From an uncultured Verrucomicrobiota bacterium (GTDB taxonomy: Bacteria > Verrucomicrobiota > Verrucomicrobiia > Limisphaerales > UBA8199): a DNA stretch of 64,000 nt. Location: the NCBI GenBank assembly GCA_964446585.1, contig CAYUPI010000004.1, positions 124,177-188,176 on the forward strand, read 5' to 3'. The position numbers were made by a program, and so were the translations under genes. Below, piece after piece: positions 2,642-58,621 of this stretch; the stretch's first letter is position 1, and every line of letters starts with the position of its first letter. The notes under the pieces were generated by a model. It saw only the letters and a list, made by a program, of their open reading frames with translations. It had not been told where the DNA came from and made no database searches.

Positions 2642-2670
2642 GCGTCCAGCTTCAGCTAACTCCGTTCCCT

Positions 2671-8587: not shown

Positions 8588-8998
8588 TCATCGGGTCAGG
8601 CCGGTCGAAGGCTTCCAATCTTTATCTTTGATTTCGATCAGATAGCAGCCTGCATTATTTCCCATCAAATTCTCGGCATTGTGCTGTTCGGGCGGTGCCC
8701 AGCCCATTTCGCCGGCTTTAGCGTTCTCGAACGTTTCTTTCCCGTCCGGCGTGATGATCCGGAGCTTGGCATCGGTCAGCATGATATAAAGATGCGCCGG
8801 ATGCGTGTGCATACCAAATCCGCAAACGTCCTTCTCCGAACCCGTGTGGCACTCAATCACTCGAATCTTATCATTTTCGAAGGCGACCTTGTAAACTGCA
8901 GGTCCGTTCGAATTTGCTGCACTGCGCGGGGTATGACATCCTGCACAAACCAGGGCTAGAGCAGTGGCCGCGGCCATGACGGATGAGGCTTGACGCAT
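8588..8998 (-). CDS. Cupin-domain lipoprotein, BauB-like
   Basis: Start at ATG 8998; signal peptide with LVCAGC lipobox; cupin His motifs HTHP and EQHN; overall pattern ENDKIRVIE...LIEIK. Confidence 0.7.
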   Translation of the reverse strand: MRQASSVMAAATALALVCAGCHTPRSAANSNGPAVYKVAFENDKIRVIECHTGSEKDVCGFGMHTHPAHLYIMLTDAKLRIITPDGKETFENAKAGEMGWAPPEQHNAENLMGNNAGCYLIEIKDKDWKPSTGLTR

Positions 8999-9116
8999 GA
9001 AGCATGAATTCCGAAAAGCCAATGCCGAAAAATCTGACCAACGGCGTCCCTCTGGGTGTTGGAGTTTTGGCTTCGTTATTCCTTCGTCATTGGTCATTCG
9101 GATTTCGTCATTCATA
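8998..9116. repeat. Gene-less degenerate heptamer array with inverted arms (AATGACG type)
   Basis: Minus strand reads gaatgac-gaaatcc-gaatgac-caatgac-gaaggaa-taacgaa... and ends in a complementary-type arm (ttttcggcattggcttttcggaattc). It fills the gap between the preA stop and the cupin start. Confidence 0.7.
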
Positions 9117-10427: not shown

Positions 10428-10430
10428 AAA

Positions 10431-10588
10431 AAACTTTCAAATTCCAACATCCACCAACTAGATAAGCCTCAAGTCGCAAGGCACACAAAACCTCCAAAAT
10501 CCAACAACCAACTTCCAGAAAAAGCTCAAATCACAAGATCCAAAACAGATGGTTCTCGTTTGGCTGTTGGAAGTTGGAGGTTGGAGCT
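10431..10588. repeat. Heptamer array plus inverted arm downstream of four-helix-bundle gene 1
   Basis: CCAA-type units from 10431 to about 10545 (ttcaaat-tccaaca...ctccaaa-atccaac-aaccaac-ttccaga), then TTGG-type units at about 10559-10588 (tttggct-gttggaa-gttggag-gttggag). Confidence 0.75.
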
Positions 10589-11086
10589 TCATTTTTGTTT
10601 GGGTCGTTTGCGGAATATGCTGGCGAAAATCATGAGCAACTCGTGGCCTTCGCGATACAGCTTACAGGCTTCTTCGACCAAAGGGGCCTCGGAGGCGGCA
10701 ATCGTCCGCAGAAAATATTTCGTCTCCTTGGCCTCTTTAACGCAGCGACTGATCGAGAAAAAGAAATTCCCTTTCGAAAAGCTTTCGTTTGCTTCGAGAT
10801 AGTTGGCGCCGACGCTCGTGCCGCATCCAACGTTCTGATCTATCAGCCTGTTGTTCGTCGAGTCGTGAAGAATCCTCTTCGAGAAGCGCACAATCGCCTC
10901 GCCGAAATCTGGAGTCCGTTCTTCCAAATCGAACTCATGCCGCGGTTGGCCGGTTCCGTTAGGCCCCTCGTTCAACAACCAGCCCAATGCAAGCGGCTCC
11001 GGATAAGGGACTTGCTCACCAGCCTTTTTTGAAGCTTGAAGCTTGGTTTTTGTCTGGCTGTTGGCTGTTGGGTGTTGAAGTTTCAT
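10589..11086 (-). CDS. Four-helix-bundle protein (TIGR02436 / 23S rRNA IVS protein-like)
   Basis: DLEERT..FGEAIVRF, LIDQ..GCGTSVGANYLEA and KEAKETKYFL motifs. The ATG overlaps the preT stop (ATGA, 11083-11086). Confidence 0.85.
   Translation of the reverse strand: MKLQHPTANSQTKTKLQASKKAGEQVPYPEPLALGWLLNEGPNGTGQPRHEFDLEERTPDFGEAIVRFSKRILHDSTNNRLIDQNVGCGTSVGANYLEANESFSKGNFFFSISRCVKEAKETKYFLRTIAASEAPLVEEACKLYREGHELLMIFASIFRKRPKQK
11030..11082. repeat. Heptamer array at the 5' end of four-helix-bundle gene 1
   Basis: Minus strand acttcaa-cacccaa-cagccaa-cagccag-acaaaaa-ccaagct-tcaagct-tcaaaaa. Confidence 0.75.
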
Positions 11087-12632: not shown

Positions 12633-13877
12633 ATGACGACACCCCTAAATCCGAAACGGACAGTCGCTGAACTCAAGGAACTGCGCAGCCTCACTTCCGA
12701 TGAGAACGGAGCGCAGCGGGTCGCCTTTACGCCGACGTGGGTCAAAGCGCGCGATTGGCTGAGAGAGAAACTCAGGTCACTGCCCGTTGAGAGCCACATC
12801 GATGCCGCGGGCAACTCCTGGACGACGCTCGCCGGTGAATCCGAGCGGGCGCTACTGATCGGCGGGCATATCGATTCGGTGCCGAACGGCGGCTGGCTCG
12901 ATGGCTGCCTCAATCTACTCGCCGGGCTGGAGATCCTGAGGCGAGTCAACGCGGAGTACGGAGGGAAGCCGCCGGTCACCGTCCGGCTGGTCGATTGGGC
13001 GGACGAGGAAGGCGCGCGGTTCGGCAAGAGTTTATTTGGCTCCTCGGCCTGTTCCGGAAACCTGAACATGGACGAGGCCCGTGTTCTAACGGACAAGCAA
13101 GGCATCCGCTTGCCGGACGCGCTCAAGAGTGTCGGCGTGGACTTCGAGCGAGTGAAGGAGAGCGGCCGGGAGCTCAAGAATGCGGGTGCCTATATCGAGT
13201 TGCACATCGAGCAAGGGCCGGTGCTGCTGGATTTGGAGCTGCCGCTGGGCGCGGTGCTGGGCACGTTCGGCGTCGAGCGGCACGCCATCACCTTTCATGG
13301 CCAGGCGGCGCATTCAGGCAGCACGCCGATGAACCGTCGCAAGGACGCCTTCCTGGCCGCGGCGAAGATAAGCCAGGAGATTTACCGCATTGCCGAACGG
13401 AGCAAGGGAGGAGTTTGCACTATCGGCTCCTGCACGACCAAACCCGGCATTGTGACGAGCGTCGTCGAAGAGTGCCGCATCACGCTCGATCAGCGTCACC
13501 TGGACGCGGCGGCCCTGGCGCGGATGCTGCAGGAGGCCAAGGCTGCAAGCGAACGCTTCGCGAAGGAAGGCAACGTCGGAGTGTCGTGGGAGCGGTTGTG
13601 GCAAATCGAGCCGGTGTTGTTTAATCCGGATTTGATAGCTTTCTGTTCGGAGGCGATAACTGAAACGTGCGGCAAAACTCACCGGCTCCCTTCGGGCCCG
13701 CTGCATGATGCCGCCGAGGTGGCGCGCGCCGGCATCCCGACGGTGATGACGTTCGTCCAAAGTCTCCACGGGATCAGTCACAACAAGATTGAAGATACCA
13801 AAGAAGAGCACCTCGAGCTCTGCGTGGCCGCATTCGATAAACTAGCGGACAAGGCGATGAAGTGGGTGGAAGGTTGA
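12633..13877 (+). CDS. M20 Zn amidohydrolase, probable beta-ureidopropionase / N-carbamoyl-amino acid hydrolase
   Basis: GGHIDSVPNGGWLDG, DEEGARFG, ELHIEQGP, HSGSTPM, SGPLHDA; divergent from preTA. Confidence 0.85.
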   Translation: MTTPLNPKRTVAELKELRSLTSDENGAQRVAFTPTWVKARDWLREKLRSLPVESHIDAAGNSWTTLAGESERALLIGGHIDSVPNGGWLDGCLNLLAGLEILRRVNAEYGGKPPVTVRLVDWADEEGARFGKSLFGSSACSGNLNMDEARVLTDKQGIRLPDALKSVGVDFERVKESGRELKNAGAYIELHIEQGPVLLDLELPLGAVLGTFGVERHAITFHGQAAHSGSTPMNRRKDAFLAAAKISQEIYRIAERSKGGVCTIGSCTTKPGIVTSVVEECRITLDQRHLDAAALARMLQEAKAASERFAKEGNVGVSWERLWQIEPVLFNPDLIAFCSEAITETCGKTHRLPSGPLHDAAEVARAGIPTVMTFVQSLHGISHNKIEDTKEEHLELCVAAFDKLADKAMKWVEG

Positions 13878-14001
13878 AGCGTTAGAACGCTGAAACGTTG
13901 AATCGTCAAGCGTGGAATGGTGGAATGGTGGAAGAGTGGGAGCGTGGAAGCGTCAAAGCGTTGAAGAGTTAAAGAGCTGAAGCGTAGAAACGTGGAATCT
14001 A
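13875..14001 (+). repeat. Degenerate 8-nt tandem array, about 16 units
   Basis: TGAAGCGT TAGAACGC TGAAACGT TGAATCGT CAAGCGT GGAATGGT GGAATGGT GGAAGAGT GGGAGCGT GGAAGCGT CAAAGCGT TGAAGAGT TAAAGAGC TGAAGCGT AGAAACGT GGAATCTA. Confidence 0.9.
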
Positions 14002-14908: not shown

Positions 14909-16390
14909 ATGAGCGCCGCAAAGCCAGCCTCGGAATGGGGAAAGATGGCCACTCGGGTTATGCGGCGCCTTGAAGAGCTTGGCCAAATCAGCGACGAACC
15001 GGGCCGGCTGACGCGCACCTTTTGCTCGCCTGCGATGCGCCGCGCGAATGACCATGTCGGTTCCTGGATGCGCCAAGCAGGCATGACGATCCGTCAGGAT
15101 GCCATCGGCAATCTGGTCGGCCATTACCCCGGTCAAAGTGCGAAGTGCGAAGTGCGAAGTGCGAAATGCGAAGTCCATCCTCCTCCGTCAGAAGCACTGC
15201 GGAGGACAATAAGTCCATCCTTCTCTGTCAAGAGCGCTGCGGGGGACAAGAAGTCCAAAGTTCTGCTGCTTGGCTCGCATCTCGATACGGTCCGGGATGC
15301 GGGCAAATTCGACGGCGCTCTGGGCGTGCTGGTAGCCATTGCCTGTGTCCAGAAGCTCCACGAGCGTGGCAGCCGGCTGCCATTTGACATTGACGTCCTC
15401 GGTTTTGGAGATGAGGAAGGCATCCGGTATTCCACAGCCTGCCTGGGTAGCAGGGTCCTCGCGGGAACTTTCGACCGACGCGATTTGAAACGCCGAGACG
15501 CCAACGGCGTCACCATGAGGGAGGCCATCCGCGAATTCGGCGGACGCCCGCAAGCATTGAGCGGCGCGCGGTTCGATCCCGAACGGTTGCTCGGGTACGC
15601 CGAGATCCACATCGAACAGGGACCTGTGCTGGAGCAGCAGAATCTCGCGGTCGGCGTCGTGTCCGCCATAGGCGGTCAAACCCGCGCTCGGATTTCGTTC
15701 ACTGGGCAGGCCGGACATGCCGGGACCACTCCGATGAACCTGCGCCGGGATGCGTTGTGCGGTGCCGCCGAGTTTATTTCGGTAGTCGAGGCGCTCGCTC
15801 GGAAACAGCGCGGGCTGGTGGCTACTGTCGGCGAGCTCAAAGTGCTCCGCGGCGCTTCCAATGTGATTCCCGGCCAGGTCCAGCTCAGCCTGGACGTGCG
15901 GCATGCGGAAGACGCCAGGCGGCGGGCCGCGTGCGCCGAATTGAAAAAGCGTGGCCGGGCCATCGCTTCTGAAAGAAAATTGCGATTTGAATGGAAACCG
16001 GTCAGTGAGTCACCTGCCATTCGGTGTGATCGATGGCTCTCTCAACTAATGAAGGAAGCCGTGCAGCGGCAGCAGGGCTCGGCCGTGAGTTTGCCCAGCG
16101 GGGCAGGGCATGACGCGGCGGCCATTGCGGCTATCGCCCCCGTAACTATGCTCTTCGTCCGGTGCAAGAACGGTCTCAGCCATCATCCGGCGGAATACGC
16201 CTCGAAAAGGGACGTGGGCATCGCTATGGCCGTCCTGGTTGATTTTTTGCGGGGGCTGGCAAAGAGATTTGGAACGTCCTGCGAGTCACCGACAGTGCGT
16301 AGCCGTGGACGTCAGTCGGCGCTGAAAAGCACGCGGGAAGAAGGTCCGCCGACTCACGTCGGCGGCTACAATTCAGCCCGCGATTTGTGA
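14909..16390 (+). CDS. allC: Allantoate amidohydrolase with repeat-derived internal insertion and C-terminal extension
   Basis: DAIGNLVG, GSHLDTVRDAGKFDG, DEEGIRY, EIHIEQGP, HAGTTPM, SGAGHDA, SHHPAE; lies between uraH and allB. Confidence 0.88.
   Translation: MSAAKPASEWGKMATRVMRRLEELGQISDEPGRLTRTFCSPAMRRANDHVGSWMRQAGMTIRQDAIGNLVGHYPGQSAKCEVRSAKCEVHPPPSEALRRTISPSFSVKSAAGDKKSKVLLLGSHLDTVRDAGKFDGALGVLVAIACVQKLHERGSRLPFDIDVLGFGDEEGIRYSTACLGSRVLAGTFDRRDLKRRDANGVTMREAIREFGGRPQALSGARFDPERLLGYAEIHIEQGPVLEQQNLAVGVVSAIGGQTRARISFTGQAGHAGTTPMNLRRDALCGAAEFISVVEALARKQRGLVATVGELKVLRGASNVIPGQVQLSLDVRHAEDARRRAACAELKKRGRAIASERKLRFEWKPVSESPAIRCDRWLSQLMKEAVQRQQGSAVSLPSGAGHDAAAIAAIAPVTMLFVRCKNGLSHHPAEYASKRDVGIAMAVLVDFLRGLAKRFGTSCESPTVRSRGRQSALKSTREEGPPTHVGGYNSARDL
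15136..15256 (+). repeat. AAGTGCG heptamer array followed by an imperfect 40-bp tandem duplication inside allC
   Basis: AAGTGCG x4 plus AAATGCG at 15136-15170; units 15171-15210 and 15211-15250 match at 33/40 positions by manual alignment. Confidence 0.9.
16299..16369. repeat. GTAG-type REP inverted pair inside the allC 3' end
   Basis: gtagccgtggacgtcagtcggcg (16299-16321) vs reverse complement of 16347-16369, gtagccgccgacgtgagtcggcg: 20/23 identity. Confidence 0.85.
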
Positions 16391-27301: not shown

Positions 27302-27357
27302 GGGGTCAAACGCGGCCGCACCTAGCCAAGGACTTCTGCAAAAGCGCAATGTTCTCG

Positions 27358-27478
27358 AATGACGAATGACAAATGCTAAATGACGAAAGAAATCCTAATG
27401 ACCAAATCCTGAAAACGCTCCGACTCTGTTGCTTGTATTAGTCATTCGTCATTCTTCAGTCATTTGACATTCGTCATT
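27358..27478. repeat. Gene-less inverted heptamer-array hairpin (AATGACG type)
   Basis: aatgacgaatgacaaatg (27358-27375) vs reverse complement of 27461-27478, aatgacgaatgtcaaatg: 17/18; lies between convergent thrC and TPR genes. Confidence 0.88.
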
Positions 27479-27525: not shown

Positions 27526-28533
27526 TTACTTCGGCGCGGCTTTGGTCGGCGGTGCGTTGGTCTCTTTCGCCTCTCTTACCTCCTTTTCCTGCAGCTCGAT
27601 GTTGCGCGCAAGGCGGTTCTTCAGGTCGGCGTACATTTCGTTCGTGACGGCCGCGATGTGCGCCCGGGCTTCAGCGAATCGCTCCGCATGTAACTTGAGG
27701 CGGGCAAAATGCAGGTACACGCCTTCCCGCTCGATCTCGTCATGGGCAATCTTCAGCGCGTTCGTCCAGGCGTTGAGCGCGTCCTCGGTGCGCGTCGGCT
27801 TGATGCCGTAATAGGTCTGGGCGACGTCCGACGCCAGCGGAAAATTCGTTGGGTCGAGTTTCAGCGCCTTGGCGTAAAGTTGTAACGCTTTGTCGAAGAC
27901 TTGCTGCTCCGTGATTCCGTAGAACTCCTTCGCGTCCTTTCGGAAAAGATAAACCGTCGTCCCAAAGTTATGATAATACACCGGCTCAAGCGGGTTCAAT
28001 TCGATTGCTTTAGCGTAATACTCGAACGCCTTTTTGACCGGGCCGTCGTGGCCGTAGATGTTTGCGAGGTTGTTGTAGACCGCTGGATTGTTTGTATCCA
28101 GTTCGAGCGCCTTTTCCAGTTGCTCCTGGGCGGCCGCTTCGTCGTGAATGTCGCCCAGAAAGCTCGCGTAGGCGACGCGCGCGCGGACATGTTCCGGATG
28201 CCGCTTGATGAAATCCTCGTATCGCTTGCGAATGGGGTCGAAGCGCTCATGGATGCGCCGGTTCAGATCCGCCGGCTTGGCACCGGCGCCTTTGGCGGCG
28301 AATTCGTTGTTCTCCTGAATCCATTTGTCAACCTCGGCCTGGACGGCGTCGTCATCCTCGACCAGTTCGGTGTATTCTAGTTCCACCGCGTCGCTGGGCG
28401 CGGCCGGCACGCCTGCCGTTCCCTGGGCGGCCTGTGCCCGCCCACCTTCCGTCTGCCGCACCACGTTGGTGACCACCGCCGGGTTGTTAGTCACCAGCAC
28501 CGCTCCCAACACCGCCATCAGAAAACTGTTCAC
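27526..28533 (-). CDS. Exported tetratricopeptide-repeat protein
   Basis: Hydrophobic N-terminus; TPR-like LEKALELD..NP.VYNNLA and YAKAIELNP.EP.YY.NFG. Confidence 0.8.
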   Translation of the reverse strand: MNSFLMAVLGAVLVTNNPAVVTNVVRQTEGGRAQAAQGTAGVPAAPSDAVELEYTELVEDDDAVQAEVDKWIQENNEFAAKGAGAKPADLNRRIHERFDPIRKRYEDFIKRHPEHVRARVAYASFLGDIHDEAAAQEQLEKALELDTNNPAVYNNLANIYGHDGPVKKAFEYYAKAIELNPLEPVYYHNFGTTVYLFRKDAKEFYGITEQQVFDKALQLYAKALKLDPTNFPLASDVAQTYYGIKPTRTEDALNAWTNALKIAHDEIEREGVYLHFARLKLHAERFAEARAHIAAVTNEMYADLKNRLARNIELQEKEVREAKETNAPPTKAAPK

Positions 28534-48533: not shown

Positions 48534-51500
48534 TCACGCTGCCTGCATTGCTTTGAGCGATCGGGAGCGCCACAGATAGTAGATGGCCGGATAGACCAGC
48601 AGTTCCATGGTGGTCGAAGTGACGACGCCGCCGATCATGGGTGTGGCGATGCGTTTCATCACGTCCGCGCCAGTGCCGTGACTCCAGAGGATCGGCATCA
48701 GTCCGGCGATGATGACTGAGGCGGTCATGGCTTTGGGGCGGACGCGCTTGACCGCGCCGTGATAGATGGCGTCGCGCAAGTCGGTCGCATGGCGCATGAG
48801 ACCCTTCTTCTGCCAGTCGGCGTATGCGAGGTCCAGGTAGAGGAGCATGACGACGCCGGTTTCGGCATCGAGCCCGGCGAGGGCAATGATGCCAACCCAG
48901 ACCGCCACGCTCAAATTGTAGTGGAGCAGGGCGAGCACGCCGAAAGCGCCCACGAGTGAAAATGGCACGGCCAGCATCACGATGGCAGTCTTGATGGCCG
49001 AGCGCGTGTTGAGGTAAATGATTAAGATAATGATGAGCAGCGTGAGCGGAATGACGATCATGAATCGTGCCTTGGCGCGGAGCATGTATTCATATTGGCC
49101 GCTCCAGAAGATGTTATAGCCGCCGGGTAGGTGGATGCGGCCGTTCGCGACGGCTTCGTCGACGGCGCGTATGGCCATCTGGACGTAGGTGCCGATATCG
49201 ATGCCTTTGACGTCCACATAAATCCAGGCATTAGGCACCGCGGCCTCGCTCTTGATTCCCATCGGAGCATGGACGATTTCGATGCGGGCTAACTGGCCCA
49301 GCGGGACCTGAGGACCCGAGGGCGTTGGCACAATGATTTCGCGCAACGCCTCCGGACTTTCGCGAAAATCGCGGCTGTAGCGAAGGTTTACGGCATATCG
49401 TTCGAGTCCTTCGACGGTCGTTGTGAGCGCCATGCCGCCCAGCGCCACCTCGAGTACGTCCTGGACCGCTCCGATCGTTAAGCCGTATCTGGCAATGGCA
49501 TCACGGTCGATTTGGAACTCGATGTAATTGCCGCCCATTGTGCGCTCAGCAAACGCGCTCAAAGTGCCCGGCACGGTCTTAACCACAGCTTCAATCTCGG
49601 ATGCCACCCGCTCCAACTCGGCGAGGTCGGGGCCGGCGACCTTGATGCCGACTGGAGTCTTGATGCCCGTCGCCAGCATGTCGATGCGCGTCTTAATCGG
49701 CATCGTCCAGGCATTGTTCAAACCCGGAATCTGAACAGCGCGATTCATCGCTTCCGTCAACTCATCGGGCGTGCGGCGGCGATGAGCGATGATGTTCCCA
49801 GAGTCATCGAGGATTTCCACTTTCGGCCATTCCTCTTCGGGCTTGAGCATGATGGTGGTTTCAATCATGTCGAAGGGCGCGGGGTCGGTTGCCGTTTCAG
49901 CGCGGCCGATCTTGCCGAAGACTTGATGGACTTCGGGGAAGCGGCGTAAGATTTTGTCGGTGGTCTGGAGGACCTCGCGTGCTTTGGTGGGTGAGATCCC
50001 CGGAAAAGTCGTGGGCATGTAGAGCAGGTCGCCTTCATAAAGAGGCGGCATGTATTCGGAGCCGATGTTTTGGTATGGGAAATATTTCCCAATCTTGAAG
50101 GCCAATTCCTTGGTTCTGCCATCGGGCAACAGTTTGGCGGCGAGCGCATTCCAGGGCAGGAAGGTCCAGATAATGAGGGCAGCAGCGGTGGCGATGACAG
50201 GCCAGCGCCACTTGATTACAAAATCGATTGCCGGATGGTAGAGCCAAATGAGGAAACGGTTGATCGGATTTTTCTCCTCGGCGGGAATCTTCCCGCGAAT
50301 GAAAAAGCCCATGAGCACGGGTGCGAGCGTGATCGATAGCAGCGCCGCCGCAGCCATGGAATAAGTTTTGGTGAAGGCCAGAGGCTTGAAGAGGCGGCCT
50401 TCCTGCGCCTGGAGTGCAAACACGGGAATGAAGGAAACGGTGATTACCAGCAGAGAGTAAAAGAGCGTGGGCCCGACCTCGATGGAGGCATCACGGATTA
50501 TATCCCAATGGGGCTTTTTGCCCTGGTCACGCTCCATGTGCTTATGAGCGTTTTCGATCATGATGATGACCGCGTCCACCATGGCGCCGATGGCGATCGC
50601 GATGCCGCCGAGCGACATGATGTTCGAGCTGATGCCCTGCTCGAACATGACGAGAAAAGACATGAGGACGGCGACGGGCAGGATGATGATGGCGACCAAC
50701 GCGCTGCGCAGATGCAGGAGGAAAGCGATGCAAACCAGCGCCACAACAAGGCTTTCCTCGATGAGTTTCTCTTCAAGAGTCCTGACTGCGCGTTGAATGA
50801 GCGCGCTGCGGTCGTAGGCAATCGTGTATTTCACATTCGCGGGGAGGCCCTTCATAGCGGTGTCGAGCTTTCGTTTGACGTCGAGGATAACCTGCCGGGC
50901 GTTTGCGCCGTAGCGAACGACGACAATGCCGCCGACGGTTTCACCCTCGCCGTTCAGTTCGGCGATCCCGCGCCGCATATCGGGACCGAGCTCGACATTG
51001 GCGATCTGGCCGAGGAGAATCGGAACTCCCTTGTCGCCGACGCCTACGGCGATCTTGCGGAGATCGTCAAGTTTTTGAACGTAGCCACGCACGCGGAGGA
51101 TGAATTCCTTTTCGGCCAGCTCGATCGAGCGCCCGCCGACTTCGCCATTGCTGCGTTTGACGGCCATAGCGACCTCGGAAACAGAAAGGTTGTAGGCGCG
51201 GAGCCGGGCGGGATCTACGGTGACCTGATACTGTTTCACGAAGCCGCCAATGGAAGCGACTTCGGAAACGCCTTCCACAGAAGCCAACTGGTAGCGGAGA
51301 TACCAATCCTGCATGGAACGGAGTTCCGCGAGGTCGCGGTTGGTGGAGTTGATGGAATACATGAAAGCCCAGCCGACGCCAGTGGCATCCGGGCCGAGGC
51401 TGGGGGAGACGCCCGAGGGCAGGCGACCGCTCAAGCCGCTGAGATATTCGAGCACGCGGCTGCGCGCCCAGTAGGGATCGGTGCCGTCGGCGAAGATGAC

Positions 51501-51782
51501 ATAGACGAACGAAAAGCCGTAGAAAGAGTAGCCACGAACTACCTTCGCGCCCGGCACGGAAAGCATTTTGGTGGTAATGGGATAGGTGACTTGATCCTGG
51601 ACGATTTGGGGTGCCTGCCCCGGCCATTCGGTGTAAATGATGACCTGGACATCCGATTGGTCAGGGATGGCGTCCAGGGGGATGTTCTTGAGCGCGTAAA
51701 CGCCGCCCAGCACCAGAACAATCGTCCCTAGCAGGACGATAAATTTGTTCCTGAGGGAGAAATCTATAATGCGCTGGAGCAT
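48534..51782 (-). CDS. cusA: Heavy-metal RND efflux permease, CusA/SilA type
   Basis: PLDAIPDQSDVQVI, LGPDATGVGW, NIMSLGGIAIAIGAMVD, MPPLYEGDLLYMPTTFPG, WTMPIKTRIDM, KRVRPKAMT. Confidence 0.93.
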   Translation of the reverse strand: MLQRIIDFSLRNKFIVLLGTIVLVLGGVYALKNIPLDAIPDQSDVQVIIYTEWPGQAPQIVQDQVTYPITTKMLSVPGAKVVRGYSFYGFSFVYVIFADGTDPYWARSRVLEYLSGLSGRLPSGVSPSLGPDATGVGWAFMYSINSTNRDLAELRSMQDWYLRYQLASVEGVSEVASIGGFVKQYQVTVDPARLRAYNLSVSEVAMAVKRSNGEVGGRSIELAEKEFILRVRGYVQKLDDLRKIAVGVGDKGVPILLGQIANVELGPDMRRGIAELNGEGETVGGIVVVRYGANARQVILDVKRKLDTAMKGLPANVKYTIAYDRSALIQRAVRTLEEKLIEESLVVALVCIAFLLHLRSALVAIIILPVAVLMSFLVMFEQGISSNIMSLGGIAIAIGAMVDAVIIMIENAHKHMERDQGKKPHWDIIRDASIEVGPTLFYSLLVITVSFIPVFALQAQEGRLFKPLAFTKTYSMAAAALLSITLAPVLMGFFIRGKIPAEEKNPINRFLIWLYHPAIDFVIKWRWPVIATAAALIIWTFLPWNALAAKLLPDGRTKELAFKIGKYFPYQNIGSEYMPPLYEGDLLYMPTTFPGISPTKAREVLQTTDKILRRFPEVHQVFGKIGRAETATDPAPFDMIETTIMLKPEEEWPKVEILDDSGNIIAHRRRTPDELTEAMNRAVQIPGLNNAWTMPIKTRIDMLATGIKTPVGIKVAGPDLAELERVASEIEAVVKTVPGTLSAFAERTMGGNYIEFQIDRDAIARYGLTIGAVQDVLEVALGGMALTTTVEGLERYAVNLRYSRDFRESPEALREIIVPTPSGPQVPLGQLARIEIVHAPMGIKSEAAVPNAWIYVDVKGIDIGTYVQMAIRAVDEAVANGRIHLPGGYNIFWSGQYEYMLRAKARFMIVIPLTLLIIILIIYLNTRSAIKTAIVMLAVPFSLVGAFGVLALLHYNLSVAVWVGIIALAGLDAETGVVMLLYLDLAYADWQKKGLMRHATDLRDAIYHGAVKRVRPKAMTASVIIAGLMPILWSHGTGADVMKRIATPMIGGVVTSTTMELLVYPAIYYLWRSRSLKAMQAA

Positions 51783-51788
51783 TTTTCG

Positions 51789-51860
51789 TGGAGCGTCAGG
51801 AGCGTGGAGCGTGGGGAGCGTCAGGCGGGAGCGTGTCTGCTAAGCTCGCACGCTCTGACG
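51789..51860. repeat. GAGCGT-type array and inverted arm at the 3' end of four-helix-bundle gene 2
   Basis: tggagcg-tcaggagcg-tggagcg-tggggagcg-tcaggcgggagcgtg, then inverted cacgctctgacgc at 51848-51860. Confidence 0.8.
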
Positions 51861-52275
51861 CAGCTACGATATACTCTACAGGGACCTCGCGCAGCTCACA
51901 GCCCGCGCCACACCATGAAGCGGCATCGTTCATCATGTTGGACAATTGCCCACAAATGTGGTCGTATTGATCGCTCAGTTTCGTCTGTGTGTCGGCAACC
52001 AGGTATCCGCAATTAAGGGCGAAGCTCAGATGGACCTCGGTTTCGGCGGCCTCAGTGTCACTATCGCTGAGTTTACTGACAAACGCCGCTTGATACCGGC
52101 GCTTACGCCAAGCTTCTGCGATGTTCGTGCAAACGGACCTGGAGGATCTCCGTATCTGATCAATCAATGAGAACTTTTCCTCCGACGGCCAAGTGCGGCT
52201 TAGTCGGAAAATCTCCATTGCTGAGTCATAGGCGAGTCTGTAAACCCGCAGTTCCTTATAGTCTTTGGCTCTCAT
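51796..52275 (-). CDS. Four-helix-bundle protein (TIGR02436 / 23S rRNA IVS protein-like)
   Basis: DYKELRVYRLAY, EEKFSLIDQIRRSSRSVCTNIAEAWRKRRY, SKLSDSDTEAAET, ALNCGY; tail LREVPVEY. Confidence 0.92.
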   Translation of the reverse strand: MRAKDYKELRVYRLAYDSAMEIFRLSRTWPSEEKFSLIDQIRRSSRSVCTNIAEAWRKRRYQAAFVSKLSDSDTEAAETEVHLSFALNCGYLVADTQTKLSDQYDHICGQLSNMMNDAASWCGAGCELREVPVEYIVAASERASLADTLPPDAPHAPRS

Positions 52276-52337
52276 ACGCTCGGCTTAGACGTTCGTTCTC
52301 ATTTTAGTGTGTTATTTACCCATCACTTCTCGCGCGC

Positions 52338-52380
52338 CTACGCACCACGCTCCCCACGCTCGCACGCTTCGACGCTCACT
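52338..52380. repeat. ACGCTC-type array upstream of four-helix-bundle gene 2
   Basis: 52347-52361 (acgctccccacgctc) is the exact reverse complement of 51807-51821 (gagcgtggggagcgt). Confidence 0.85.
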
Positions 52381-52386
52381 CCGCCC

Positions 52387-54321
52387 CTACCGTCCCCGCG
52401 AATGCTGCCTCCGCCAATTCGCCTCGGCCGTTTCGCCGTGGTTTACCTTGGTCGTCTCCACAAGGTCCATCTCACACTTTGGACAATTGCCCGGTTGGTC
52501 CGACACCACGTCGGCATGCTCGGCCATCGGACAGGTATAAAGTCTAGAAGGCATTGTCATCGCAGAGCCGCCGGCCTGTTTCGAGGCGGAGCTTGGGCGG
52601 ACCATGACGGGAATCAGGGTCATTCCGCAGCGCGGACACTTGCCCGGCTTGTCCCGATGGACGTCGATGTGTTCGTGCATCGGGCAGGTGTAGTACTCCA
52701 ACTTCCCGCCCGGTTGGATGCGCGCGAGGATTTCGCGGCCAACCGGCACGAGAGTCATGCCGCACAGGGGACATTTGCCCGCGTGATTGTATTCCAGCGA
52801 GACGTGTTCAGGCATCGGGCAGATATAGACGACTGGCTCGGCATCGGAGGCTGGGGGATTAGTGCCTGCGCCCGCCGCGACGGTCGGCATAACCGGCGCG
52901 GTCGGTTGAAGTACTTCTCCCGGCGCGCCGGGGCGCTGCATTTTTTGGATTGCTTCCCGTAACTGGCTCTCGGAATCGAGCATGAACTGGCCGGAAGTAA
53001 CCACCTTTTCCCCTTCCTTGAGTCCGACTAATACCTGGTAAAAGCCATGTTCTGCGGCAGCGCCAAGGCTTACGGTGCGAGGCTCGAAGCGCCCTCCCGC
53101 CAGAGCGACGAAGACCGTGTTCTTTTCCCCACTGCGAAGCACGGCCGAATCCGGTACCAGAACCTCGGAGGTGGCCAGTTCGCACGTCATCTCGACTGTC
53201 GCGTACATGCCGGGCTTAAGGAAATAACCGGGGTTGTGGAATTCCATCCGCACCCGGGCAGTTCGGGTCTTCTCATCTACTGTTGGGTAAATATAGGTCA
53301 CGCGCCCGCGGAACTTCGTGTCGGGCTGCGACGCCAGGCTCACGACCGCCTCCTGGCCAAGCCGGATGAAGGGCAAATCCTGCTCATAGACCTGCGCCTG
53401 GATCCAGACCGTGGCGAGATCAGCCAGCCGGTAAAGTTTCATGCCCGGCTCGACCATCTGGCCTTCAACGACCATTTTCTCGACAACTATGCCGTCGCGC
53501 GGCGCATTCATCCGGAGAGTCTTTTTCGGAGTCCGGCTGCGTTCCAACCCGGCGATCTGGTCCTCCGAAATGTCCCAGTATCGCAACTTGGTCATGGAGG
53601 CCGTTTTGCGTAAATCCGCAGCGATCCCGTCCTGGTTCGTCGAGGAGCCGAGCGTCAGGAGATATTCGGTTTGCGCGAGGTAGAGCTCGGGCGAATAGAT
53701 CTCGAACAACGGTTCACCGCGGTGCATTTGCTGGCCGGTGGCGTCCACATAAAGCTTTTCGATCCAGCCGCGGAACTTGGTGCTGACTTCCGACAGCGCG
53801 GTTTCGTCGTAATCAAGCACGCCAACGGTGCGGATGGTCCTCCGCAAGGGCCCCCGTTCGATCAAGGCGGTGCGGATACCCATGTTCTGAGTGGTGACGG
53901 GATCGATGGTAATGGTTTGTGAAGAGCTTCTGCTCGCCTCATCTTCATAGACCGGCACCATTTCCATTCCCATGGAATCCTTGCCCGGCGTCTGTCGAGC
54001 TTCACCGGGCATCATCGTGGACTTGTAAAATTTGATTTTGCGTTCGCCGGCGGGAGCCGCCGCCGCCGCCAGGGTATTCTGGCCCTGTTTTCGGATGGGG
54101 GTGAGCTTCATGCCGCAGATGGGGCAGTTGCCGGGTTTGTCCTGGATGACCTGAAGATGCATTCCGCAGGTGAAGAGGGTTTGGGTTGTCTCGCGCGCGC
54201 CTGAGGCCGCAACGTTGTCGCCGCGGCCACAGCCGGACAGCCATACCGCGGCGCTGCCTGCGATGCCGAGAGTAAGGAGAATTATCGCGTTGAGTTTCAC
54301 GGGCTTGAATTGAAAATTCAT
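52387..54321 (-). CDS. cusB: RND periplasmic adaptor, CusB-like, with multiple heavy-metal-binding domains
   Basis: GWIEKLYVD, LYRLADLATVW, VTYIYPTV...TRT, LKPGMY, VVTSGQFMLDSES; four C(P/G)M...CP.C(G/E)M modules plus YKSTM...KDSMGMEM. Confidence 0.9.
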   Translation of the reverse strand: MNFQFKPVKLNAIILLTLGIAGSAAVWLSGCGRGDNVAASGARETTQTLFTCGMHLQVIQDKPGNCPICGMKLTPIRKQGQNTLAAAAAPAGERKIKFYKSTMMPGEARQTPGKDSMGMEMVPVYEDEASRSSSQTITIDPVTTQNMGIRTALIERGPLRRTIRTVGVLDYDETALSEVSTKFRGWIEKLYVDATGQQMHRGEPLFEIYSPELYLAQTEYLLTLGSSTNQDGIAADLRKTASMTKLRYWDISEDQIAGLERSRTPKKTLRMNAPRDGIVVEKMVVEGQMVEPGMKLYRLADLATVWIQAQVYEQDLPFIRLGQEAVVSLASQPDTKFRGRVTYIYPTVDEKTRTARVRMEFHNPGYFLKPGMYATVEMTCELATSEVLVPDSAVLRSGEKNTVFVALAGGRFEPRTVSLGAAAEHGFYQVLVGLKEGEKVVTSGQFMLDSESQLREAIQKMQRPGAPGEVLQPTAPVMPTVAAGAGTNPPASDAEPVVYICPMPEHVSLEYNHAGKCPLCGMTLVPVGREILARIQPGGKLEYYTCPMHEHIDVHRDKPGKCPRCGMTLIPVMVRPSSASKQAGGSAMTMPSRLYTCPMAEHADVVSDQPGNCPKCEMDLVETTKVNHGETAEANWRRQHSRGR

Positions 54322-54349
54322 AAAGAGTCGGGTCCAGTGCAGGTGCGGG

Positions 54350-55840
54350 CTACAATCCACCGCGGCCGATTTTGTTCGGCAACGATTGCGCGGTGCCGCT
54401 CATGGGCGAAATATTGGAGCCCATCGAGGAGCTGACAGGCGACATGCCTTGAATGATCAAGGAGAGTTCGGTGAGGACGATTTCGCGTTGCGCTGCGGCC
54501 TCGACCTTATCCAGTTGGAAGCCAAGGAGGGTGCGCTCAGCATCGCTGAGGTTGAAAAAGTCGATTTGACCAGCCAGGTAGCCGGAGCGGGCAACTTCGA
54601 GTGACTGGCGGGCTTTAGGCAGGAGTTGATCGTTCAGAAGAGTCAGGCTCCGGCTTGTCTCCCGATATCGATAGGATTTTTCGGCGAAGTCCACCGCCAG
54701 GGCGATCTGCTCGGCAGAGAGACGCGCCTCGGCCGAGCTTTTGGTGGCCTGCGCCTCGGCGATTTGGGCAGCAATTTTGTCTCGCCAGATGGGGAGCGAA
54801 AGAGTACCCGGGTTACCAGGGAATCGGTACAGCGTAGGGTTCATTTTCACATCAGCCATGAGCCCGAGGCTGAAGTCGGGAAAGCGACCCTTTTGGGCGA
54901 GGACAATGGAGGCTTCAGCGGCGCGGATTTCGGCTTCTATGGCTTTGAGTCGCTGATTCGCTGCGAGGGCGGTCGCGAATACATTTTCCGAAGTCAGATC
55001 GAGGGGTGTGGCGGCAACATGCTGCGGGAGGGGCGGCGCGGGCGCGTCAGCTTTCATTCCCAGGGCGGCCTTGAACTGAGCCATTAGCGAACTGTGCGAG
55101 TCCTTGAGGTTGGCGAGCTCCGTACGGAGCCGGTCCTGCTCGATTTGGGCGCGGAGGACGTCCTGAAGGGTGACTTTACCGACCTCGTTCTGGGAGTGGG
55201 CGAGTTTTTCCAACTCGTTCAGGAGTTGAAGAGTCTCCTGATTGACGCGGATTTTTTCCTCGAGGAAGTAAAGCTGGTAATAGGCGCGCTTGAGCTCGAA
55301 AGCGCTATTGAGGACGGCGGACTGGAAAGCGAAATATTTGGCCCGGCTTGCGGCGGAGGCGACCTCTGCACCGACTCGGAGCTTATCAGGCCACGGGATG
55401 GTTGCCATGAGGCCGGGCATGACGGAGGTGACGATGTTCTGAACATCCATCTGGAACGTAAACTGAGGGTCCGGGAAGGACCGGGCCTGCGTGATGCGCT
55501 CGACGGAAGCGAGCCAGTCGAAGTAGGCCGCCTCGATCTTCGGCTGATTCAGAAAGGCGTAGGTGAGATAGTTGCTAAGGCTGGAATCTGGTAAAAGCTC
55601 CGGCAGGGGGGGCTTGCGACCCTGCGGGCGATAACTGGCCGCCACTTCTCGCGTCTGTTGGCGGGCCTCTTGCTCGCCCTTGGTGGGGATGCCCTGGCAG
55701 CCGGAGAGAACGAGGGCGGCTGCAGCGAGGGCGAATGGAATTACCGTGAGCTCGCGGTGAAATCGTTCCTGCACGGAGTTCAGCGCGGGCCGCGACTGGT
55801 GTGCGGTGAGCGGGAGCGGGCAAATGGGATGGCGCGGCAT
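54350..55840 (-). CDS. TolC-family outer-membrane efflux lipoprotein (CusC-like)
   Basis: Lipobox LSGC; ARSFPDP, VTLQDVLRAQ, LPIWRDK, AGQIDFFNL; first gene of the cus-like operon. Confidence 0.85.
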   Translation of the reverse strand: MPRHPICPLPLTAHQSRPALNSVQERFHRELTVIPFALAAAALVLSGCQGIPTKGEQEARQQTREVAASYRPQGRKPPLPELLPDSSLSNYLTYAFLNQPKIEAAYFDWLASVERITQARSFPDPQFTFQMDVQNIVTSVMPGLMATIPWPDKLRVGAEVASAASRAKYFAFQSAVLNSAFELKRAYYQLYFLEEKIRVNQETLQLLNELEKLAHSQNEVGKVTLQDVLRAQIEQDRLRTELANLKDSHSSLMAQFKAALGMKADAPAPPLPQHVAATPLDLTSENVFATALAANQRLKAIEAEIRAAEASIVLAQKGRFPDFSLGLMADVKMNPTLYRFPGNPGTLSLPIWRDKIAAQIAEAQATKSSAEARLSAEQIALAVDFAEKSYRYRETSRSLTLLNDQLLPKARQSLEVARSGYLAGQIDFFNLSDAERTLLGFQLDKVEAAAQREIVLTELSLIIQGMSPVSSSMGSNISPMSGTAQSLPNKIGRGGL

Positions 55841-56251: not shown

Positions 56252-56599
56252 ATGAACGGGAAGCGAACACCTGATGATGAGAGCGCCTTGCGGCAGGTTT
56301 TGGGCGAATGGGCTGTGGCAGCGCCGCTACCGCCGCGCTTCCGGGAACAGGTGTGGCAGCGGATAGCGCGAGCGGAGAAGCAGGCGGAAGGACTTCTATG
56401 GACCAGTCTATTGGATCTGGTCGAGGTCGTATTGCGGCGGCCTAAAGTGGCCTTGTCGTATGTCAGTGTGCTCCTGGCCTTAGGGGTGGTCGTGGGCGCC
56501 TGGGCGGCACAGGCCAAAAGCAAACATCTGGACGCAGACCTGAGCTCGCGCTACGTCCAGTCGATAGCGCCGTATCGAGCCGACAACGTTGCGCCATGA
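56252..56599 (+). CDS. Membrane-anchored anti-sigma-factor-like protein (CnrY position)
   Basis: Short cytoplasmic N-terminus (LRQVL.EW....PLPPRF..QVWQRI), one TM helix, short periplasmic tail; overlaps the next gene. Confidence 0.65.
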   Translation: MNGKRTPDDESALRQVLGEWAVAAPLPPRFREQVWQRIARAEKQAEGLLWTSLLDLVEVVLRRPKVALSYVSVLLALGVVVGAWAAQAKSKHLDADLSSRYVQSIAPYRADNVAP

Positions 56600-57099
56600 A
56601 GCGGGGTGGAATCATTCTGCTTCTCGGGTTGCTCTTAGCGGTCGCAGCCGGAGCGGGCTTCTATTACGGAGGCACGGCCGCGTATCGGAGGATGATGCAC
56701 GAACCGCAACCGGAACTGGCGTGGCTTAAGAAGGAATTTCACTTAAGCGACGCCGAGTACGCACGAATCTCGGCTTTGCATGAAGCTTATCTACCCCAAT
56801 GCCGGGAGCGATGTCGCCGGATCGACGAACAGAATTCAAAATTGAAGGAGTTGCTCGGTCGGAGCACGAATGTAACGGCTGAAGTGCGCGAGCTGCTGAC
56901 CGAACGGGCGAAGATGCGGGCCGATTGCGAGGCGGAAATGCTGAAGCACTTCCTGGAAGTAAGCCGCACCATGCCGCCCGAGCAAGGGCGCCGTTACCTG
57001 GCGTGGGTTGAGCAGCAAACGTCACTGCGGGGCGAGGGCATGGAGCAGCGGCACCACATGAACCACGGCGACGGAATGGCCGGCGATCCGCACAAGTAG
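56596..57099 (+). CDS. Periplasmic heavy-metal sensor-like helical protein (CnrX position)
   Basis: N-terminal anchor; EFHLSDAEYARI..LHEAY, MLKHFLEV..TMPPEQ..RY; His/Met-rich tail. Confidence 0.75.
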   Translation: MKRGGIILLLGLLLAVAAGAGFYYGGTAAYRRMMHEPQPELAWLKKEFHLSDAEYARISALHEAYLPQCRERCRRIDEQNSKLKELLGRSTNVTAEVRELLTERAKMRADCEAEMLKHFLEVSRTMPPEQGRRYLAWVEQQTSLRGEGMEQRHHMNHGDGMAGDPHK

Positions 57100-57106
57100 C
57101 CAGGCC

Positions 57107-57697
57107 ATGAGCGGAACAAACTGCGAAGAACTGGATGCGGAAGACATGAGTCGGCTGAAGGCCGGGCACGGAGCGGCGTTGAACGCGCTGATGGATCGCC
57201 ATGCCGAGCGCCTCTTCAATTACTTGCTGCGCCAACTCGGCAATGAAGCGGATGCCGCCGACCTCGCCCAGGAGGCATTCGTCAGAGTTTATCAGAATTG
57301 TGCGCGTTTCGATCCGGAGCGGAAGTTCTCGACTTGGTTGTTTACCATCGCAACAAACCTAGTTCGTGACCGGTTTCGATGGCGCATGCGGCACAGGGAG
57401 GTTTCGATAGATGCAGCAGACGACGAGGGCGCAGCACTCCAAGACTCGCTGCCGGACACCACCGGCTCTCCCGAGGAGCAGATCGAGGCTCGGGAACGCG
57501 CGTCGGAAGTTCGCCGAGCTGTGGAATCGCTACCGGAGGAACTGCGGACGCCGTTGATTCTTTCCGAATACGAGGGGATGACGCATGCCGAGATCGGTAC
57601 AGTGCTGGGGTGCTCGGCAAAGGCAATTGAGTCCCGACTCAGTCGCGCCCGAGGGCGTCTGCGAAAACGACTGGAGGGGTTGCTCCAGCCCGGTTAG
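57107..57697 (+). CDS. ECF RNA polymerase sigma factor (CnrH position)
   Basis: DLAQEAFVRVY, FSTWLFTIATNL..DR.R, LP..LRTPLIL..YEGMTHAEI..VLGCS..AIESRLSRAR. Confidence 0.92.
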   Translation: MSGTNCEELDAEDMSRLKAGHGAALNALMDRHAERLFNYLLRQLGNEADAADLAQEAFVRVYQNCARFDPERKFSTWLFTIATNLVRDRFRWRMRHREVSIDAADDEGAALQDSLPDTTGSPEEQIEARERASEVRRAVESLPEELRTPLILSEYEGMTHAEIGTVLGCSAKAIESRLSRARGRLRKRLEGLLQPG

Positions 57698-57705
57698 AAG
57701 TGCGC

Positions 57706-57724
57706 GGGAGGCAGGTGGCCTCCC
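57706..57724. terminator. Possible hairpin between convergent genes
   Basis: gggaggc-aggtg-gcctccc; no clear U-tract. Confidence 0.3.
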
Positions 57725-57739
57725 GACTCCAAAAGAGTT

Positions 57740-58036
57740 CTAACTCTTCTTTTTCGCCTCAGCTTCGGCCTTTTCGATCTTCTTGACGTATTTGGCCGGG
57801 TCTTTCTTGAAATCTTTCACGCAGTCTTTGCAGCAAAACTGGATCTCTCGGCCCTCATGGACATACACAAACGGTTTCCCCATTTCACCGAGTTTTTCAC
57901 CTGAGACCACGCAAGTCTTCAGGGTATAAGGCTTTGGCTTGGTGTCCGTCTTCTGGTCGGCGGCCAGCCCAACCATGGGGGCGGTTAATGTGGAAACTGC
58001 CAGAATGGCAGCAGTAAGATTCTTGAGTTTTTTCAT
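57740..58036 (-). CDS. Exported YHS/TRASH-like small metal-binding protein
   Basis: Signal peptide; CVVSGEKL and YVHEGREIQFCCKDCVKDFKKDPAKY. Confidence 0.8.
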   Translation of the reverse strand: MKKLKNLTAAILAVSTLTAPMVGLAADQKTDTKPKPYTLKTCVVSGEKLGEMGKPFVYVHEGREIQFCCKDCVKDFKKDPAKYVKKIEKAEAEAKKKS

Positions 58037-58621
58037 AATTTTGTTCGAGGTCGCATCTATTATACGCCGGATGCCGGCATTCCCTTCAATCTTTTTTTGG
58101 GCAGAAGTAGGGCGTCTGCTCGATGGTTCTGTGCAATTTCTGCGCAATTCATTACAGAAGTTTAATCCGCTAAATTGCCTTTGTATGAAACTAAATCATG
58201 TCGGTCGGTGTCTCTCTAGCTGGATATGAAAATGAAATCGAATCGCACCCGATTGATTGTAGAATTCAAGAAGTTTCAACGCCTGCCCGATTTGCCGATC
58301 GGCAAGGTAGCCGACACCAACCGATCTTCAGCGAACTCCAAAGAGCACGGGGCCACATTGCCTACCGTCTGTCGTGAGGCTGTATTTCCCGCCCATGGCT
58401 TCGCGGAATGATCTTTAAAGGGGCTTCCGTCACGGGTGTAGGGTCGCTTAGTGTACTTTTCCTGCGCCGGCCTTTTTTTCTCTACCTGTTAAGTCCCTTC
58501 GCGTGATTGGAGGCGTGTTGGCGCCGTTCAGCGAGAATTTAATCGACTCCGATGGCCGACCCTTTCTCGCCACCCAATCCTGCAAACCAATAGTGCCAGG
58601 CGTGTTGGATAAATCTGCGGC

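Follow-up and report, generated by a model that had tools for sequence, protein, structure and literature searches.

A four-helix-bundle gene between complementary repeat arms separates cusB from cusA in a verrucomicrobial heavy-metal operon and resembles the intervening sequences of 23S rRNA

In Coxiella burnetii, the intervening sequence (IVS) in helix 45 of the 23S rRNA is 428 nt long, carries an open reading frame (ORF) for an S23p protein, and is bounded by a 28-bp terminal stem that is cut by RNase III (PMC4990558); excision of the Leptospira IVS by RNase III is cited in the same paper, as is work on IVSs by Ralph and McClelland. Such IVSs with an S23p ORF are the closest known kind of element to the one described here, which lies in an mRNA operon and has arms built of repeats: a 604-bp cassette at positions 51783–52386 of a 64,000-nt window (the whole stretch of DNA that was analyzed, from contig CAYUPI010000004.1 of an uncultured Verrucomicrobiota bacterium), between the genes for a CusB-like adaptor and a CusA-like pump. 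The two share the PF05635 protein family, the size class (428 nt in Coxiella, 604 bp here), an ORF in the loop of a stem formed by complementary termini (28 bp in Coxiella, ~37 bp predicted here), and a sporadic distribution among relatives, and for both a selfish or mobile origin has been proposed. They differ in the host, which here is a polycistronic mRNA between protein genes and not an rRNA (the site is the junction of a cusB-like and a cusA-like gene and not a helix of a 23S rRNA gene), in the arms, which here are tandem units of 7–9 nt and not unique sequence, and in the ORF, which here is selected and placed so as to permit translational coupling, that of Coxiella being in decay and apparently not translated. 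We propose, with a probability of about 0.45, that this is an IVS-like gene cassette resident in the operon, looped out of its transcript, with translation relayed downstream.

The cassette is a single heritable unit of five ordered parts (5′ arm, leader, ORF, same-sense units, and complementary 3′ arm), lying exactly between one stop codon and the next start codon. All parts are on the minus strand and are described here in the mRNA sense. The 5′ arm (52331..52387), located by repeat analysis and folding, is an (N)GAGCGU array (GUGAGCGU CGAAGCGU GCGAGCGU GGGGAGCGU GGUGCGU) whose first base is the final base of the cusB stop codon. An A-rich leader of ~55 nt (52276..52330) runs from it to the start codon of the ORF (51796..52275, 159 amino acids), the tail of which contains two same-sense GAGCGU copies (CGUCAGAGCGUGCGAGC; 51841..51866) that form the 5′ half of an alternative local hairpin. 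The 3′ arm (51783..51840) is an ACGCUC(C) array, from which the end of the ORF and its stop are read, followed by eight bases and the cusA AUG; the stop codon (51796–51798) is 13 nt from that AUG. The initial annotation had the last codons of the ORF translated from the array, and indeed ~13 codons of the tail TLPPDAPHAPRS come from the ACGCTC array at 51787–51835. The arms are complementary here and in relatives, and the units change in both arms together.

The perfect 15-bp inverted match spanning the ORF (51807–51821 with 52347–52361), which had been noticed in that annotation, is real and extends to 25 nt at 84% identity. The 604-bp sequence was dinucleotide-shuffled 200 times; among inverted matches whose arms were at least 300 nt apart, the longest per shuffle measured 6–10 nt, and none (0/200) reached 15. 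The shorter same-sense copy, said to offer a local hairpin, was likewise found (51844–51861 against 52358–52375, 89% over 18 nt), and both of the alternative pairings occur in predicted folds. The local hairpin of the same-sense copy with the 3′ array has a computed energy of −36.1 kcal/mol (z = −3.6), while the minimum free energy (MFE) and centroid structures of a 621-nt RNA both close the entire cassette (z = −2.7). The predicted closing stem of ~37 bp consists of four helices separated by loops or bulges of 1–2 bases. Its ends are the G of the cusB UAG stop and the UG of the cusA AUG, the latter within the outermost helix. In duplex calculations the 3′ arm binds the 5′ arm with −72.7 kcal/mol and the local copy with −35.4 kcal/mol, so the arm–arm duplex has about double the computed stability of the local pairing. 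The predicted fold thus has the form of an IVS, with complementary termini closing a long stem and the S23p ORF in the loop.

The arms are also tandem heptamer arrays of the STRR type: the Tandem Repeats Finder (TRF) rows at 51787–51825 and 52346–52377 are head-to-tail units of 7–9 nt, intergenic, and capable of forming a hairpin with an inverted partner. Arrays of this kind in cyanobacteria and Xanthomonas have units of the same 7–9 nt and are mostly intergenic between co-oriented genes (PMC2670836; PMC4692102). Arrays of the STRR type often come in convergent pairs that can fold into hairpins between co-transcribed genes, hupS and hupL being one case, and roles in transcript stability or translational coupling have been proposed for them (PMC2670836), and 70 convergent pairs of GGGAATC arrays are reported in Xanthomonas campestris and 75 in X. 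citri (PMC4692102). Unlike the cassette, these reports cover arrays or hairpins alone; we found no literature that links such arrays to an enclosed four-helix-bundle gene, in a coverage that is incomplete, so that an earlier mention is possible. X. campestris is also the source of XCC0516, a solved S23p homologue (2GSC).

The protein encoded in the loop belongs to the 23S-rRNA-IVS-protein/S23p/Avd-like family of four-helix bundles, with 96.8 bits against PF05635 (cut-off 33.8) and 90.4 bits against TIGR02436 (cut-off 24). Residues 1–138 make up the core, beyond which the tail is encoded by the repeats. Its relatives in the PDB by profile match are 2GSC (E = 6.6e-11) and 2RLD, and XCC0516 (2GSC) is reported as a homopentamer (PMC4990558). 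A structure model of low confidence (pLDDT 62) places helices at residues 10–28, 31–57, 62–88, and 94–116, followed by a disordered tail. There are at least 7996 close relatives at E < 1e-5; the top 120 are 66–87% identical, and the C-terminal tails of top relatives vary and can be seen to derive from repeats (motifs DAPRS and RSxRS, for example). With saturation at synonymous sites (median pS 0.80, against a pN of 0.15) and a dN/dS of ~0.07 where it can be computed, purifying selection on the ORF is strong.

A strongly basic, invariant patch (QIRRSSRS...AEAWRKRRY) invites comparison with Avd, a homologous four-helix bundle whose surface is also basic (phrog_3206, E = 3.8e-7). The protein is not Avd by the equivalog model NF033474, however, where it reaches 18.5 bits against a cut-off of 80, and no reverse transcriptase or template/variable repeats were found near the cassette, the neighbors being only OEP, MFP, RND, ECF sigma factor, Metal_resist, and YHS proteins. 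Avd is the nucleic-acid-associated pentamer of diversity-generating retroelements (PMC10053308), which raises the question of whether the protein here, presumably also a pentamer, could be a binder of its own units, in RNA or DNA, and so control both its own synthesis and what becomes of the operon transcript. The basic patch would fit such a self-recognizing module, as would the correspondence between protein clade and unit type (below) and the persistence of the GAGCGT core despite saturated synonymous sites, and tandem units would suit a multimer. The correspondence of clade and unit is also expected from plain co-inheritance, however, many-to-many pairing of the arms would by itself slow the change of units, and the S23p protein of Coxiella is apparently not made in vivo (PMC4990558). 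We consider this explanation quite unlikely.

The operon that carries the cassette is of the CusCBA type, a heavy-metal RND operon with pump, membrane-fusion protein (MFP), and outer-membrane factor together, all on the minus strand. The first gene, for the outer-membrane factor (54350..55840), was recognized by a Pfam OEP match. The upstream neighbor of the cassette (52387..54360) encodes the CusB-like membrane-fusion protein with four HMBD repeats, which scores 134.5 bits against RND_mfp (cut-off 94.9) and 212 bits against the CusB-specific model, below the cut-off of 390. The downstream neighbor (48534..51782) encodes a heavy-metal RND pump of the CusA/CzcA family, with 1137 bits against TIGR00914 (cut-off 701) in a profile search. 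The 604-bp gap between the two, at 51783–52386 and with the four-helix-bundle gene as its only ORF, is as first described. Within the cassette, no site resembling a promoter or a terminator was found, as would fit its being co-transcribed with cusC, cusB, and cusA. Neither the cassette nor any other part of the 64-kb window matches an Rfam family, rRNA included, and a PADLOC scan returned no match. Five Logan contigs were found, all 100% identical to the window.

Approximately 20 other heavy-metal RND loci have the same protein subfamily together with the same GAGCGT/ACGCTC arms; the closest named genome is a metagenome-assembled genome (MAG) of the Limisphaerales (Verrucomicrobiota). All relatives that are at least 61% identical, have an SWCGxGCELRE extension, and have a readable context are in heavy-metal RND operons, with the sole exception of L107 (62% identical), which has a UbiD-type context. 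The usual position is between adaptor and pump (L006–L009, L012, L044, L092–L106, L108, and the P0083 contig), while in L010 the cassette sits at the junction of outer-membrane factor and adaptor (cusC|cusB). The anatomy is shared by the heavy-metal loci: an (N)GAGCGT array starting from the upstream stop, a spacer of ~40–60 nt equivalent to the leader and usually containing an AGGA/GGAG Shine–Dalgarno-like motif, 2–8 GAGCGT copies in the ORF tail, a loop, and the ACGCTC array. Where the next start codon is readable, it follows the ORF stop by 0–25 nt or overlaps with it (GTGA), and in a second class of operons the C-rich array encodes an N-terminal extension of the pump. In L044 (on a contig titled Candidatus Acidoferrum) and P0134, the operon and cassette sequences are of nearly the same type as in the verrucomicrobial loci, and the acidobacterial label is due either to a binning error or to the operon having been transferred as a whole.

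Such a steady association with metal efflux suggests another explanation, in which the protein is a domesticated accessory of heavy-metal RND operons in Verrucomicrobiota of the Limisphaerales type, for example a metal-binding regulator or chaperone, and the repeats are ordinary intergenic arrays. The extension-bearing relatives, apart from L107, are found in OEP-MFP-RND operons of two classes with only ~54% identity between their CusA proteins, a Scytonema relative lies between a DUF305 gene and an MFP-RND pair, the dN/dS ratio is low, and arrays without an ORF are common in the window. The residues His106, Cys108, and Cys122 are invariant in the heavy-metal clade only; elsewhere they are found in 59/141, 36/141, and 52/141 proteins, respectively. 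This restriction hints at adaptation to the heavy-metal context and is not evidence of function. Within each class, moreover, the cassette protein diverges together with CusA (83–87% vs 78–87% identity in class I and 80–85% vs 79–83% in class II). A comparison with N-terminal CusA fragments had indicated no co-divergence (Spearman 0.21); this was overturned by comparisons over 800 amino acids of CusA, in which co-divergence holds within an operon class and discordance is confined to the comparison between classes and to L101. The accessory explanation is nevertheless in our opinion unlikely: the gene is missing from all four of the closest CusA orthologues that were examined, L010 has it at a different junction, the same arm–ORF–arm arrangement is also found at atpG|atpD, kinase|regulator, preT|preA, and PSD1|DUF1501 junctions, and the arms show complementarity specifically to each other and follow the protein clade.

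The four orthologues (86–90% identical to the CusA of the window) come from look-ups with CusA, which sample operons without bias as to the presence of the cassette, and in 4/4 cusB is followed directly by cusA, which supports the statement of the initial annotation that the cassette splits cusB from cusA. The cassette-free spacers are 60, 11, 11, and 418 nt long and contain no four-helix-bundle gene. In the CusA tree, cassette-free L172–L174 are the nearest relatives of the window operon and are nested among cassette-bearing operons, and L010 belongs to the same clade. The 60-nt spacer (L172, 4941–5000) contains a short C-rich mini-array (CTCCAGCTCTCCAGCTTTCCA), which could be the remnant of a lost 3′ arm. 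The 418-nt spacer (L175, 4583–5000) is occupied by another repeat family (AGTCCCGAAGGGAC, four copies) and has heptamers of the CTTCGTCATTC type just ahead of the cusA start. Between the two classes, identity is ~54% for CusA and ~75% for the cassette protein, and L101 is a class-I operon with a cassette protein closer to class II. On these comparisons, the cassette is dispensable and separable; it usually resides in an operon for long periods, is occasionally lost cleanly, and has changed its junction or operon class on at least a few occasions.

These are features one would look for in a mobile element acting at the DNA level, with the arms as terminal inverted repeats for excision and insertion, or as sequences maintained by template switching or gene conversion, and with the RNA stem as a by-product. 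Presence and absence among orthologues with clean 11-nt empty sites, relocation to cusC|cusB within one operon clade, the placement of the L101 protein with the other class, and an identity between classes far above that of CusA are all in line with this. So too are the occurrence of one subfamily in unrelated operons, members 55–65% identical across phyla, copies on cyanobacterial plasmids, and arm mismatches with no bias toward G·U; the older literature had also proposed IVSs as remnants of mobile elements (PMC4990558). As in REP/RAYT systems and in miniature inverted-repeat transposable elements and insertion sequences (MITE/IS), a gene lies between inverted repeats, many intergenic copies without an ORF exist, and the repeat type is specific to a clade. 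Unlike in these systems, there is no transposase-like protein, and the other arrays of the window are not copies of the arm unit. Presence/absence polymorphism is accompanied by neither of the other hallmarks of a transposable element: no transposase, recombinase, or endonuclease was found in or beside the cassette, the family is without a known catalytic motif, and comparison of filled with empty junctions gave no target-site duplication. The saturated synonymous sites and the mostly parallel divergence with the operon indicate that movement of the cassette is rare, and the polarity of the arms relative to translation is left unexplained by this model. Overall, we doubt that a DNA-level mobile element is the right description.

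The window contains a second, independent cassette of the same design, cassette 1, on the minus strand between a PreT-like gene and preA (10428..11086, ORF 10589–11086). Its protein matches TIGR02436 (E = 3e-11, 43.4 bits, cut-off 24) and falls below the cut-off of PF05635 (27.8 bits against 33.8), and BLAST detects no similarity between the proteins of cassette 1 and of the cusB–cusA cassette (cassette 2). The two proteins are too distant for homology searches, which is why tblastn, a motif regular expression, and a hidden Markov model (HMM) of the cassette 2 relatives all missed cassette 1, and it was located via the positions of arrays. Arrays at 13.9, 27.4, and 41.1 kb were considered as cassette 1 and rejected, as they hold purine-catabolism genes, a convergent-gene hairpin, and ilvC/ilvH, respectively. 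The ATG of the cassette 1 ORF overlaps the preT stop (ATGA), and its arms are of the CCAAC/GTTGG type, with a translated C/A-rich 5′ arm, a local hairpin, and a G/T-rich 3′ arm that reaches to the preA AUG. Its polarity is the opposite of that of cassette 2, with the C-rich arm first. In both families of the window the untranslated arm is G-rich and the translated arm is C-rich, and the predicted fold of cassette 1 likewise closes the cassette. Relatives of cassette 1 are again found at preT|preA, or at PSD1|DUF1501, and their arms covary within the subfamily (AGCTCC/GGAGCT, ATTCC/GGAAT, and CCCC/GGGG). The layout of cassette 1 is thus repeated in cassette 2 with a different unit and a different protein subfamily, as the initial annotation had stated. 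Its further conclusion, that cassette 2 is an independent event, stands insofar as subfamily, unit, polarity, and operon all differ from those of cassette 1; the event is neither private nor recent, given the ~20 other loci, the divergence in step with CusA within classes, and a dN/dS of ~0.07. The counterproposal considered there, that the ORF is a conserved member of cus operons without these repeats, is half right, since the gene is conserved and recurrent, yet always accompanied by the repeats and dispensable in close orthologues.

The design is by no means restricted to heavy-metal operons. Scans of metagenomes and of one genome per species yielded a wider family of 160 loci, 47–66% identical to the window protein, in Chloroflexota, Cyanobacteriota, Cloacimonadota, Planctomycetota, Bacteroidota, Acidobacteriota, and other phyla. 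The units differ and the arms are still complementary, as in GTGTGGGA/CCCACAC, GGGGAGCA/TGCTCCCC, GGATGGGT/ACCCATCC, GTGTGAGGG/CCTCACAC, and GGGGACAC/GTGTCCCC. The host junctions typically separate partner genes, among them ATP synthase gamma|beta (atpG|atpD), histidine kinase|response regulator, histidine phosphatase|CobQ-like, DUF305|MFP-RND pair, preT|preA, and PSD1|DUF1501; another site is 3′ of a UbiD-like gene and is followed by a short ORF rich in cysteine, which by eye looks like a zinc ribbon. Neighboring genes are co-oriented with the ORF in 83% of cases upstream and 73% downstream, which is close to expectation for ordinary bacterial genes. The design also occurs on plasmids of cultured cyanobacteria, among them Nostoc sp. 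MS1, where the arms are of GGGAGCA units and one carrier is gene NSMS1_RS31795 of plasmid pNSMS101, and in four cyanobacterial members (L057, L074, L077, and L180) STRR-like arrays serve as the arms.

Across 141 loci, the median length of the longest exact inverted match between cognate flanks is 11 nt, and in 67 loci this match is at least 12 nt long, compared with a median of 8 nt and 3 loci for non-cognate flanks, and a median of 8 nt and 15 loci for matches in direct orientation. Duplex energies of whole flanks were uninformative. Of 140 loci, 132 have a G-rich 5′ flank; the polarity of both arms is as expected in 102 of the 140 and the opposite in 3, which ties arm polarity to the strand of the ORF. 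Arm unit type correlates with protein distance (Mantel r = 0.36, 0/999 permutations), so that on these sequences the unit type tracks the protein clade. The notion that the arms are a chance product of low complexity, two unrelated G/C-rich arrays, could appeal to the frequency of arrays in the window and to the fact that G-rich and C-rich flanks pair even with one of them reversed. It is barely credible and already contradicted by the comparative data: cognate flanks are far better matched than non-cognate ones, units covary within subfamilies, the identical unit is found in ~20 relatives, and none of the 200 shuffles exceeded 10 nt.

How an IVS-like cassette might work in an operon transcript can be outlined from the predicted folds. 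The arms would zip into the ~37-bp duplex between the cusB stop codon and the cusA AUG, and the many pairing registers offered by tandem units should help segments 0.5 kb apart to meet. Pairing would loop out the 0.5-kb insert and bring the cusB stop and the cusA start as close together as they are in the 11-nt empty sites, and the length of the duplex probably suits it as a substrate of RNase III, as in the homologous 23S rRNA IVSs. Since the ORF enters the C-rich arm and stops beside the cusA AUG, its translation would melt the stem, and ribosomes on the ORF could be handed on to cusA in a possible relay. The local hairpin would be an alternative partner for the 3′ arm, and a ribosome terminating at cusB would likewise open the base of the stem that holds the cusA AUG. 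The net effect would be an insert that keeps the coupling of the genes it separates and expresses its own conserved protein. Long C-rich untranslated stretches are the kind of site used by Rho, and an arrangement with the C-rich arm translated and the G-rich arm untranslated would avoid exposing such a stretch.

Several observations weigh against this proposal. We infer RNase III cleavage, looping-out, and translational relay, and everything said of them for the window comes from the sequence and its predicted folds. Mismatches between the arms are compatible with G·U in 134 cases and are A·C in 148, and this lack of a G·U excess means that pairing is not shown to be selected in the sense RNA rather than kept in DNA; it could be kept at the DNA level, by gene conversion or template switching or through a role of the arms as terminal inverted repeats. 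When the 5′ flank is reversed, the MFE structure still pairs the G-rich with the C-rich flank (median 44 vs 52.5 pairs), so that this control, in spite of p = 7e-9 for the pair counts, is a weak discriminator. Synonymous sites are saturated, yet the GAGCGT core has been retained, which simple selection for pairing does not require; its persistence reflects either a many-to-many register constraint or recognition of the sequence, possibly by the protein itself. Many arrays in the genome have neither an ORF nor a partner. Finally, L181, on a plasmid of Oscillatoria nigro-viridis PCC 7112 (2240–3040), is flanked by direct and not inverted arrays, G/A-rich and ~150–200 nt long.

Tandem arrays are frequent in the window (60 TRF rows), with many different units that are not copies of the arm unit of cassette 2. 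On the plus strand, an array of ~125 nt (13873–13997), G/A-rich with RAGCGT and GGAATGGT units, fills the gap between genes for an M20 amidohydrolase and an OHCU decarboxylase; it has the core of the cassette 2 arm, no complementary partner, and no ORF. Also on the plus strand, five in-frame AAGTGCG units and two copies of a 40-nt unit (15136–15257) lie inside an M20 amidohydrolase gene ending at 16390, where they add ~41 codons before the M20 domain, and a paralogue at 12633–13877 is without the array. Inverted arrays of (CGAATGA)n and (TCATTCG)n at 27356–27478, flanked by a gene with its end at 27301 and a convergent one at 27526–28533, form a long hairpin, and a similar inverted pair, CATGAAG/CTTCGTCATTC, is found downstream of preA (8975–9091). 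The efflux operon itself is accompanied, in the stretch 56252–58147, by genes for a Metal_resist-domain protein (56596–57099), an ECF sigma factor (57107–57697), and a YHS-domain protein (57740–58147; a weak match of 26.0 bits, below the cut-off of 30.3), which are likely the regulators of the operon.

A wider generalization, which we regard as speculative and unlikely to hold as a whole, would be that S23p/TIGR02436 genes with paired arms are widespread, unrecognized, operon-resident elements with clade-specific recognition of their units, which splice themselves out by means of their arm duplex (structurally or by RNase III) and relay translation between the genes they separate, and that the ORF-less arrays of Verrucomicrobiota, Cyanobacteria (STRR), Chloroflexota, and Xanthomonas are their footprints or derivatives. 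The S23p/four-helix-bundle family is very large, with at least 7900 matches for one of the subfamilies in the window and at least about 3000 for the other, in many phyla. To our knowledge, it has no known function outside the Avd branch, and we know of no explanation, in decades, for heptamer arrays, whether those of cyanobacteria (STRR) or those of other bacteria. The data presented here join the two in one repeatable arm–gene–arm architecture at the junctions of coupled genes. For annotation, this means that repeat-derived protein tails and the N-terminal extensions of neighboring proteins are by-products of the arms. The model of a looped-out cassette, possibly processed by RNase III, with a translational relay is testable, and cultured cyanobacteria carry the same design. 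If true, it would show how an operon tolerates an insert of 0.6 kb between tightly coupled genes.

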